Below are positions 5,809 through 7,796 of a stretch of DNA of 24,471 nt, in pieces. The notes under the pieces were generated by a model. It saw nothing but the letters and a program-made list of their open reading frames with translations. It did not search any database and had not been told where the DNA came from. A program made the translations under genes and the position numbers. Source of the DNA: Promethearchaeia archaeon. Its GTDB lineage: Archaea; Asgardarchaeota; Lokiarchaeia; Sigyniarchaeales; SOKP01. The stretch lies in contig JAHQWJ010000112.1 of NCBI GenBank assembly GCA_029856125.1, positions 1 through 24,471 of the forward strand, read 5' to 3'. Each line of letters starts with the position of its first letter. Positions within the stretch are counted from its first letter, which is position 1.

Positions 5809-6462
5809 TTAAAGAAAGTCATTAAGTTTCTTATTACGGAAATGCTTTTCTACTCCATTTCTCATTCCAGGTAATTCAAAGCACTGATCCGGGATCATTT
5901 TCTTGTAATATTGCTTGTTCTCTCTTTCAGCTATGAATTGAGATTTGTACAATGTTTCGAATATCTCTTCTCCGGAAAATTGGATATCCTCGAAGTAGGG
6001 TACTATCTGACGATCTCTACTAACATTTTCTACAACTTCTTTTAAGGGTTGTTGAAACTCGCTAATTGCTCCTTTTTCGTCTATTATCCAAGTTTCACGC
6101 GTTTGCTCGTTATACAAACAAATGACGCATTGTGGCCACCTTTCATGAAAATAGAGCAAAACAAGATCAATTACATTATGTTTGAGCGATACAACTCCGA
6201 ATAATACACCACGATTGTTAATTTCCGTTCGCGTAAATTGTTTTGCCCTATAAGACTCAGTGAATACTTGTCGCATCATTCTATTGATTTTCTTTGCCAT
6301 TTGAATTCCAGAATTACGCAATACCGCTTCTGGAATTGTAGTTATTTGTCGTTTTATTACTGGAGAATATAAAGAATGGCGATGAAGATTCGTTAATAAC
6401 TCTTCATGTGAATATCCTCTAGAACATCCGATAACTTCCAAAGGGTCCTTTTTTTTTTCCAT
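5809..6462 (-). CDS. DUF4130/TIGR03915-like putative DNA metabolism protein, partner of the radical SAM gene
   Basis: V..ESYRAKQFTR, G.LFG....KHNVI.....YFHERWP...I.LYN and LYKSQFIAEREN....KMIP follow the DUF4130 pattern. Starts 5 bp downstream of the radical SAM stop, the known gene pairing. Confidence 0.75.
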   Translation of the reverse strand: MEKKKDPLEVIGCSRGYSHEELLTNLHRHSLYSPVIKRQITTIPEAVLRNSGIQMAKKINRMMRQVFTESYRAKQFTRTEINNRGVLFGVVSLKHNVIDLVLLYFHERWPQCVICLYNEQTRETWIIDEKGAISEFQQPLKEVVENVSRDRQIVPYFEDIQFSGEEIFETLYKSQFIAERENKQYYKKMIPDQCFELPGMRNGVEKHFRNKKLNDFL

Positions 6463-6467
6463 TTTCC

Positions 6468-7796
6468 TTATGAAATTTCTCTTATTTGTATTTCTTTATA
6501 ATCTTCGTTAGAAAAGTTATGAAGTGTAGTTTGAGTATGACCATCGATTAAGATGTAAGGATCTGCTCTCTTTAACACCACTCCCACAGCTCTCAAATCT
6601 TGTCTTCGTTTAAAAACGAACTTTTTAGCGCGCAAATTAATTATTCTTTTAGCTGAAATTGGCCCAATTCCAGGAACTCGGAGCAATTCTTGGTAGGAGG
6701 CTTCATTTGGGTTCACACGTCTATGATATTTGAAATATTCTCTTGCCAAATGAATTTTTGGATCTCCCTTAGGTAAATTCCCTTCTTCTGTGACAACTTC
6801 TTCTAAATCTTTTAGTTTAAAGTGGTAGATTCGCATTAACCAATCGCTCTGGTATAATCTATGCTCTCTTTCTAAAGGTGCAGCTTGTCTATTTCCTAGT
6901 GGTGTACCTTCTATTGGGATGAACGAGGAAAAATAAGCGCGCCTTAAATCAATTTTTTTATATCCCCAATCAATTCGTTTAAGTAAATCCAAATCTGATT
7001 CTTGTTCTGCCGCTCCGACTACAAATTGTGTTGTCTGACCACAATTGAGAATTGGGGCTCCATCCCATCGGAATTTTTTATAACCGTCGCTACGGCGCTC
7101 TTTAATCATCTTTTCTTGTTCTTTTAATTGGTTGTCTTCTTTTAAATCTTTCATAGCTTTAAGGGCTTCTTCGTTATGTCTAATACGAATCTGTTTTAAC
7201 CAGCGTTGACGAGTTATTATATCGTTGTAATAATCTTTTTGTTCTGCGATTTCAGAGAGAAATTCCTTAGTTGAAGCTTCGCTATTAATTGAGATGCGAT
7301 CCGACATGGAAATTGCGTCTCTAAGCAGAGATTGGCTCACTCCTGGTAAACATTTAAAATGTATATACCCCCCAAAATTATATTTAAAGCGGAGAAGTCT
7401 GATAGCTTCAAGCATTTCTTCAGTAGTTTGGTCAGCACTTCCACAAATTGCGGAAGATATGAATACTCCTTCAACTACATTCATCGAATAAAGCTTCATG
7501 AATGTACGGGCGTATTCTTCTGGTGTAAAACTTACCTTATGCTTACAACTATGAGAAAAGCAATACTTACAGTTGTAGATACATTTGTTTGTGTATAATG
7601 TCTTAAAGAGGCTCATGCATCGACCATCAGGCGTATAACTATGGCAAATACCAGCGCTTACAGTATTTCCTATTGTTTTTTTTGGATCTCCAAAAAGGCT
7701 GGGATATTTTTCTGTGCGACTAGAAGCAGTGCTCGCACAAATATCGTATTTAGAATTTTCTCCTAAAATTCGAATCTTTTCTAAAGTAGATGGCAC
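6468..7796 (-). CDS. Putative DNA modification/repair radical SAM protein with helix-hairpin-helix (TIGR03916-like)
   Basis: KYDIC, GICHSYTPDGRC..LFKTL, CxxxCxxC (CIYNCKYC), GYIHFK, GQTTQFVVG, REHRLYQSDWL.R.Y and HhH LLRVPGIGPISA. GTG start with an in-frame TGA four codons upstream. Confidence 0.9.
   Translation of the reverse strand: MPSTLEKIRILGENSKYDICASTASSRTEKYPSLFGDPKKTIGNTVSAGICHSYTPDGRCMSLFKTLYTNKCIYNCKYCFSHSCKHKVSFTPEEYARTFMKLYSMNVVEGVFISSAICGSADQTTEEMLEAIRLLRFKYNFGGYIHFKCLPGVSQSLLRDAISMSDRISINSEASTKEFLSEIAEQKDYYNDIITRQRWLKQIRIRHNEEALKAMKDLKEDNQLKEQEKMIKERRSDGYKKFRWDGAPILNCGQTTQFVVGAAEQESDLDLLKRIDWGYKKIDLRRAYFSSFIPIEGTPLGNRQAAPLEREHRLYQSDWLMRIYHFKLKDLEEVVTEEGNLPKGDPKIHLAREYFKYHRRVNPNEASYQELLRVPGIGPISAKRIINLRAKKFVFKRRQDLRAVGVVLKRADPYILIDGHTQTTLHNFSNEDYKEIQIREIS

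Follow-up and report, generated by a model that had tools for sequence, protein, structure and literature searches.

Clamp-matched tail motifs on an archaeal radical SAM-DUF4130 protein pair: a candidate PCNA-tethered enzyme for DNA damage processing

Introduction

Can a radical SAM enzyme work on DNA while it is held by the sliding clamp? The question is raised by two adjacent genes in a 24,471-nucleotide stretch of archaeal DNA (positions 1 to 24,471 of contig JAHQWJ010000112.1, assembly GCA_029856125.1; hereafter the window). Their products, a radical SAM enzyme with a helix-hairpin-helix (HhH) domain and a DUF4130 protein, carry C-terminal motifs resembling the PCNA-interacting protein (PIP) box. 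The host belongs to the Promethearchaeota (Loki-type Asgard archaea), and its genome, which is 99% complete, holds a single PCNA gene; one PCNA gene per genome was found in 39 of the 41 Asgard genomes sampled. The TIGR03916/DUF4130 pair is widespread and damage-regulated and has no assigned reaction. An earlier note, made from the sequence of the window, had proposed that the two proteins act on DNA while riding the clamp. Our analysis lends weight to this proposal: tails conserved in archaea, a bacterial QLxLF motif in the same enzyme family and a model that places the enzyme tail in the PCNA pocket all point to predicted clamp binding. On balance we favour the reading that the pair forms one enzyme for clamp-tethered processing of DNA damage, whatever its exact reaction. 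The elements in question are:

6468-7796, minus strand: radical SAM-HhH enzyme, 442 amino acids (aa), TIGR03916/COG4277-like, GTG start
5809-6462, minus strand: DUF4130 partner, 217 aa, ATG start
6463-6467, minus strand: intergenic gap of 5 base pairs (bp); the enzyme stop reaches an AGGA element ahead of the partner ATG
6510-6533, minus strand: PIP-box-like motif QTTLHNFS of the enzyme (Q422-S429), after the HhH_3 domain and its last β-hairpin
5812-5835, minus strand: PIP-box-like C-terminus NKKLNDFL of the partner (N210-L217), directly ahead of the stop

The open reading frame (ORF) calls and translations agree exactly with the motif positions and the 5 bp spacing given in the earlier note. 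The two genes are probably translationally coupled, and they are adjacent in 75 of 75 related loci, with gaps ranging from -38 to +36. Close homologs of the pair and their loci were found in Promethearchaeota and in other Asgard groups.

Clamp motifs in archaeal and bacterial homologs

Conservation of the enzyme tail is restricted to the three positions that would face the PCNA pocket. In every one of the 120 close homologs position 1 is Q, position 4 is L or I and position 7 is F or Y. The other positions vary, position 5 freely, and what follows the motif (13 poorly conserved residues in the host) differs in length and sequence. To lessen the effect of close kinship, we then considered a set of enzymes with labelled origin. 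Its archaeal side drew on Asgard genomes, on three more phylum samples taken around genomes that encode PCNA, on one methanogen contig and on proteins named as Woesearchaeota, Diapherotrites, Micrarchaeota and Altiarchaeota; its bacterial side comprised Bacillota genomes, annotated plasmids and named Peptococcaceae and Anaerolineales proteins. A Q..[LIMV]..[FYW] motif follows the HhH domain in 55 of the 61 archaeal enzymes and in 0 of 26 bacterial ones. Conversely, QLxLF, the β-clamp type, takes this place, at a distance that varies, in 22 of 26 bacterial enzymes (the other four are near-misses) and in 1 of 61 archaeal enzymes, which bears out the bacterial ending given in the earlier note. 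Representatives at 50% identity, without labels of origin, showed the same split. As background, Q..[LIMV]..[FYW] occurs within the last 30 residues of 2.3% of host proteins; the enzyme tail motif exceeds chance. Fisher tests on the split of tail types gave p values of about 1e-15 to 1e-16, which are overstated since related sequences are not independent. Furthermore, the clamp genes match the two sets: PCNA was found, and a β-clamp was not, in the four non-Asgard archaeal centre genomes, with the reverse in the Bacillota centre. Across the sequences compared, the type of enzyme tail thus tracks the clamp type of the host.

The PIP form of the enzyme occurs in Asgard archaea, Woesearchaeota, Diapherotrites, Micrarchaeota, Altiarchaeota and other PCNA-encoding lineages. 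The earlier note had assumed that the clamp motif was switched in this archaeon. The two motif types are indeed divided between archaeal and bacterial enzymes as it supposed, but the switch was not made here, since several archaeal phyla share the PIP form, which is old. The enzyme tree, which is unrooted, has two tail changes when left free, and strong branches force one; bacterial monophyly is not rejected by the approximately unbiased (AU) test (p-AU 0.73), so that a single change of tail type, in either direction, suffices. Repeated independent switches of the tail were also considered and were dropped on these grounds.

The partner ends in N..[LI]..[FY][hydrophobic] in 115 of 120 close DUF4130 homologs. 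When tails were scored with a stricter, tail-limited pattern, picked after the archaeal tails had been seen, a PIP-like ending was found in 31 of 35 divergent archaeal and in 0 of 14 unfused bacterial DUF4130 proteins, with a background of 8.6% among host C-termini. A looser PIP expression gave chance matches in 2 of the 14 bacterial proteins and in 23% of host C-termini. The divergent archaeal partners keep an L-D-x-F-[FL] core, and the linker preceding it differs by more than 10 residues. Bacterial DUF4130 proteins mostly end soon after a conserved P-K-x-Y-W element or run on into UdgX. Since none of the 14 has a clamp motif, the partner tail is by this comparison an archaea-only feature and not a swapped motif, and the idea of a swap on DUF4130 has to be given up. 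Conservation among archaeal orthologs, on which the earlier note had made its proposal depend, was found for both tails in the counts above. In one Asgard family (L081-L083, L085) the DUF4130 partners are longer (318-331 aa) and retain a bacterial-type N-terminal segment, and their PIP-like motif lies about 20 residues from the end. Four long representatives resemble enzyme-partner fusions, two of them with a QLS-type linker motif; these are possibly assembly read-throughs.

Many DPANN enzymes and some from Asgard archaea lack a neighbouring partner gene and still carry the PIP tail, so that the enzyme tail is independent of the partner. Apart from the tail, several of the partner-less archaeal enzymes in which it is kept (L135-L145, L184-L189, L098, L099, L122, L123) have rearranged N-terminal cysteines, and in L184-L187 most of these cysteines are gone.

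Modelled interaction with PCNA

As had been suggested beforehand, we modelled residues 345-434 of the enzyme, its HhH domain and tail motif included, together with host PCNA (residues 1-258). The tail was placed in the PCNA pocket with a complex score of 0.79, against 0.00 for the best of three controls; of 80 solved complexes 58 reach the mark set for this score, as do 2 of 110 mismatched pairs. At least 84% of contacts recur between runs, and the pLDDT (predicted local distance difference test) of the complex partner is at least 84. Modelled contacts lie on PCNA residues 41-48, 128-135, 231-232 and 248-255, and L425 and Q422 sit on 41-48, 232 and 248-253, which is the canonical pocket described in PMC6881253. 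HhH residues contribute contacts as well, so that the short linker would be no steric bar. PIP-PCNA complexes are abundant among solved structures and may have been memorised by the predictor, hence such a pass shows likeness and not binding. Docking of the enzyme tail in the canonical PCNA pocket is predicted, and we hold it very probable.

The pattern [QN]..[LIM]..[aromatic][hydrophobic] is exactly terminal in 8 of 3063 host ORFs, including NreA, PolD DP2 and the DUF4130 partner, and host Fen1, NreA and PolD DP2, which share the tail grammar of the pair, were recovered by the same blind motif scan. Archaeal PIP clients in general (Fen1, NreA, PolD DP2, RNase HII, RFC large subunit) have a C-terminal Q/N-x-x-L/I-x-x-F in common with the host tails, and the enzyme tail is modelled in the same PCNA pocket; the enzyme motif differs by its lack of position 8. 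No radical SAM enzyme was found in a literature search among described PCNA clients. We also observed PIP-like ends on a DUF72 protein (L158:84-884) and on a Rad51/RecA-like protein (L159:100-855) of the host; in locus L124, genes for a DUF72 and a DHH protein are found upstream of the pair.

Several observations weigh against clamp-tethered damage processing. The enzyme motif lacks the canonical aromatic at position 8 (S in the host; F in 24 of 120 close homologs), and its Q lies 8 residues past the last HhH aromatic in 53 of 55 archaeal matches, which a structural role would fit equally. The partner tail has N instead of the canonical Q at position 1 in 115 of 120 close homologs, and divergent homologs have T, S or K there. 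It may be that the archaeal set is a single clade and the bacterial set another, in which case the contrast between tails may amount to one evolutionary event. The pair is patchy in Asgard archaea, with a strong match in about 43 of 151 genomes and in 22 of 26 in the host family. Finally, no repair gene recurs beside the pair in archaeal loci, where the recurrent neighbours are housekeeping synteny, and the conserved promoter element described below marks no regulon. The repair link thus derives from bacteria, in which the COG1573-COG4277 operon is predicted to belong to the SOS regulon (PMC8565304) and DUF4130 is associated with SplB-like enzymes and uracil-DNA glycosylase (UDG; PMC3765255). 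As to the tails, their non-canonical positions are ordinary, because one aromatic is missing from 43% of verified PCNA motifs and Q from 34% (PMC6881253).

The tails might also serve no clamp at all, the enzyme motif packing against the partner or against the HhH domain of the enzyme itself, and the partner tail forming an amphipathic cap. The near-fixed spacing from the HhH hairpin and the missing aromatic would suit this arrangement, as would the quoted 8.6% of host C-termini in which a loosely hydrophobic pattern like that of the partner is present. Nevertheless, bacteria have the other known clamp motif at the same place and at variable distance, confidence in the monomer models is low at both tails (pLDDT 63 for the enzyme, 52 for the partner), the linker of the partner varies widely in length, and the HhH domain raises no steric conflict in the complex model. 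We therefore consider non-clamp tails improbable and retain clamp binding as the likelier explanation of both motifs.

Domains and predicted folds of the pair

The enzyme has three further elements:

6585-6722, minus strand: HhH DNA-binding domain, residues 359-404 (PF12836, 43.2 bits)
7560-7583, minus strand: CX3CX2C radical SAM motif (C72/C76/C79), invariant in the 80 genome-labelled homologs checked
7617-7739, minus strand: extra N-terminal cysteines C20, C51 and C60 (plus H52), a candidate second metal or Fe-S site

TIGR03916 scores 337.4 bits on the enzyme (E 1e-100), below the NCBIfam cut-off of 343.5, and same-genus orthologs (about 75-80% identity) score 343.7-345.4; by this profile the host enzyme is a borderline TIGR03916 ortholog. 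PF04055 (Radical_SAM) and PF12836 (HHH_3) are both above their cut-offs. The AlphaFold2 model has a mean pLDDT of 88.7, falling to 63 over residues 421-430, where a one-turn helix is formed at 425-428, and to below 50 beyond. Foldseek returned generic radical SAM barrels as top matches, and no solved member of the enzyme family was among its matches. The barrel contains a charged, helical insert about 45 residues long (enzyme ~205-250; window ~7045-7185, minus strand), which is present in the close relatives of the host, whereas most representatives lack it.

At least three cysteines precede CX3CX2C in 54 of 54 DUF4130-partnered members, about 0.5% being expected from the Cys frequency in the remainder of these proteins, and losses are often offset by new cysteines close by. 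Because the extra cysteines are kept and their losses compensated in this way, C20, C51 and C60 suggest a second metal or Fe-S site. Such a site could also serve a different chemistry, namely clamp-coupled DNA base modification instead of repair: the pair would write a mark on new DNA, for example by inserting sulfur or a methylthio group with the help of a second three-cysteine Fe-S cluster, like that of MiaB, RimO and LipA. Besides the cysteines of the partnered members, the position of DUF4130 in place of the MiaB TRAM domain in an AlphaFold3 (AF3) model (bioRxiv 10.64898/2026.08.19.745780) favours this alternative, and a post-replicative writer would be equally suited to clamp tethering. 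On the other hand, SOS control and UdgX fusion in bacteria indicate damage, many partner-less representatives carry fewer than three of the extra cysteines, and no cognate nuclease or defence gene recurs beside the pair; the ligand role of these cysteines is putative. Base modification is in our view unlikely, and damage processing on the clamp remains the preferred role.

In the partner, Pfam DUF4130 (PF13566) scores 50.6 bits, above the gathering score of 27, and TIGR03915 scores 42 bits against a cut-off of 112.25, covering profile positions 94-234 only; according to these profiles it is a divergent archaeal DUF4130 form. The AlphaFold2 model has a pLDDT of 86.1 overall and 52 in the last block. 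Its fold is nearest to RecJ/Cdc45/DHHA1 types (best Z 7.1, root mean square deviation 4.9 over 135 residues), a match that with Z below 8 is weak alone. It agrees with a recent proposal that DUF4130 binds nucleic acid without catalytic residues; there, a bacterial radical SAM-DUF4130 heterodimer modelled by AF3 has a narrow nucleic-acid channel (bioRxiv 10.64898/2026.08.19.745780). The modelled partner is thus probably a non-catalytic nucleic-acid-binding subunit.

Relation to uracil-DNA glycosylase

The earlier note found no UDG gene next to the pair. This holds, and no PF03167 protein was found anywhere in the host genome or in 25 further genomes of the host family (0 of 26 in all). With no PF03167 protein in host or family, a UdgX adduct is excluded as the substrate in the host, and since the Asgard version is UDG-free, the substrate of the family would not be solely the UdgX-DNA adduct. 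In alphaproteobacteria (annotated plasmids) the DUF4130 partners are UdgX fusions.

This distribution might mean that the pair replaces UDG in the host lineage: 22 of the 26 UDG-less host-family genomes carry the enzyme, and in bacteria the family is associated with UDG or UdgX. Outside the host family, however, there is no complementarity, as the enzyme is present in 4 of 21 genomes without UDG and in 17 of 104 with UDG, and the anti-correlation stems from one family. Moreover, an EndoQ-like TIGR00375 gene covers the UDG-less lineages, being present in 24 of 26 host-family genomes and in every sampled UDG-less family, with all matches under the cut-off. We take the TIGR00375 protein to be EndoQ-like and presume that it cuts at uracil and hypoxanthine. 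Replacement of UDG is accordingly very improbable, and the clamp-tethered processing of other damage is preferred. Among the sampled Asgard families, those without UDG all have the TIGR00375 gene and those without the TIGR00375 gene all have UDG. Endonuclease V and an ExoIII-type apurinic/apyrimidinic endonuclease were not found in the host genome, and three HhH-GPD genes are present.

Comparison with known systems

The nearest known system is the TIGR03916/TIGR03915/TIGR03914 module (COG4277 plus DUF4130, often UdgX-fused; COG1573), which has the same two proteins, gene order and coupling as the host pair and shares with the host enzyme CX3CX2C, HhH and the extra N-terminal cysteines. In contrast to the module, the host pair has a PIP-type tail in place of QLxLF and a second PIP-like tail on the partner, and it has no fused or neighbouring UDG of the TIGR03914/UdgX form, nor one in the genome. 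Furthermore, the partner lacks the N-terminal 90 profile positions of TIGR03915, and the barrel insert of the enzyme is lineage-specific. SplB, like the host enzyme, is a radical SAM enzyme on DNA; unlike the host enzyme, it is presumably a single chain without HhH or partner. It was not within the top 50 Foldseek matches of the enzyme model, and no SplB model was among the NCBIfam or Pfam matches of the pair at E 0.1. The label SplB-like has been given to DUF4130-associated enzymes (PMC3765255).

A precedent for clamp-matched tails is NucS/EndoMS (PMC8228993), an unrelated nuclease with measured clamp binding and a known substrate, whereas the host pair is a radical SAM heterodimer with predicted binding. 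No paper linking the TIGR03916/DUF4130 family to a clamp, none joining TIGR03916 or radical SAM with UdgX and no relevant title for radical SAM with PCNA and PIP was found in a search that excluded subscription papers, and the two DUF4130 papers found make no mention of a sliding clamp. Thus the catalogued family and the clamp-matched tails of NucS are known already, and the clamp link of TIGR03916/DUF4130 appears new.

Proposed mechanism

Gene adjacency, the apparent fusions and the published AF3 model of the bacterial pair suggest that the two genes are co-expressed and that the proteins form a heterodimer. The enzyme would be held on PCNA by Q422, L425 and F428 with additional contacts from the HhH domain, a predicted step in which we have high confidence. 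The tail of the partner might provide a second anchor on the PCNA homotrimer and so a gain in avidity; we think this rather likely from its sequence. Next to the clamp, the HhH domain would hold the DNA by its backbone, and a single-stranded or flipped nucleotide would be offered by the DHH/DHHA1-like partner. DNA repair is, by a modest preference, the role that we assign to the radical chemistry. A 5'-deoxyadenosyl radical could take hydrogen from a damaged nucleotide, and a bulky or cross-linked lesion could be reversed or cleaved at forks and gaps; this particular reaction is doubtful. The least certain step is the lesion chemistry itself, which might resemble that of spore photoproduct lyase and might draw on the putative second three-cysteine metal site. 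Taken as a whole, a radical SAM heterodimer that rides the clamp in both prokaryotic domains, is doubly anchored on the PCNA trimer in archaea, has a second three-cysteine Fe-S site and carries out a previously undescribed, UDG-independent repair or base modification is a speculative picture, less likely than not.

A clamp motif matched to the host in both domains would put the pair on clamp-loaded DNA, that is at forks, gaps and repair intermediates. If the whole picture given above is true, the pair would define a repair route in Asgard archaea and would be, to our knowledge, the first clamp-tethered radical SAM enzyme. In biochemical assays the clamp should be added and the substrate be primed or gapped; point mutants could separate targeting from catalysis. 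Because the motif fits the host clamp in both domains, DNA is favoured over RNA as the substrate, a choice that was left open in bioRxiv 10.64898/2026.08.19.745780.

Promoter and other features of the window

Ahead of the pair lies a conserved promoter:

7865-7872, minus strand: TATA box; the promoter also has a C-run
7885-7896, minus strand: near-palindrome TTGAA-N2-TTCAA

TATA box, C-run and near-palindrome keep a fixed spacing in most related loci, and the near-palindrome stands 12-14 bp above the TATA box in 56 of 80 of them. As to expression, no RNA run was found to contain the stretch (shares of 0.17 or less). No comparable element was found elsewhere in the host genome (best other score 18, against 48 here), and a DNA-damage regulon acting through it was rejected on this ground, there being no other strong site in the genome.

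Elsewhere in the window, a gene for an Eco57I/TaqI-like N6-adenine DNA methyltransferase (10372-11928, minus strand) has no recognised nuclease adjoining it and is syntenic in 50 related loci; from this context it is a conserved orphan methyltransferase. An archaeal lipid cluster (19880-23773, plus strand) encodes a kinase-like membrane protein without a Pfam match, a geranylgeranyl reductase, a PcrB-family geranylgeranylglyceryl phosphate (GGGP) synthase and a UbiA-family digeranylgeranylglyceryl phosphate (DGGGP) synthase. Two convergent paralogous genes for Gfo/Idh/MocA-like oxidoreductases (15822-18188) have identical first residues and ends 3 bp apart. Finally, an ORF resembling ribosomal protein uS2 (2327-3226, plus strand) is extended at the N-terminus by a long acidic stretch and carries a repeat tail rich in S, R and Q.

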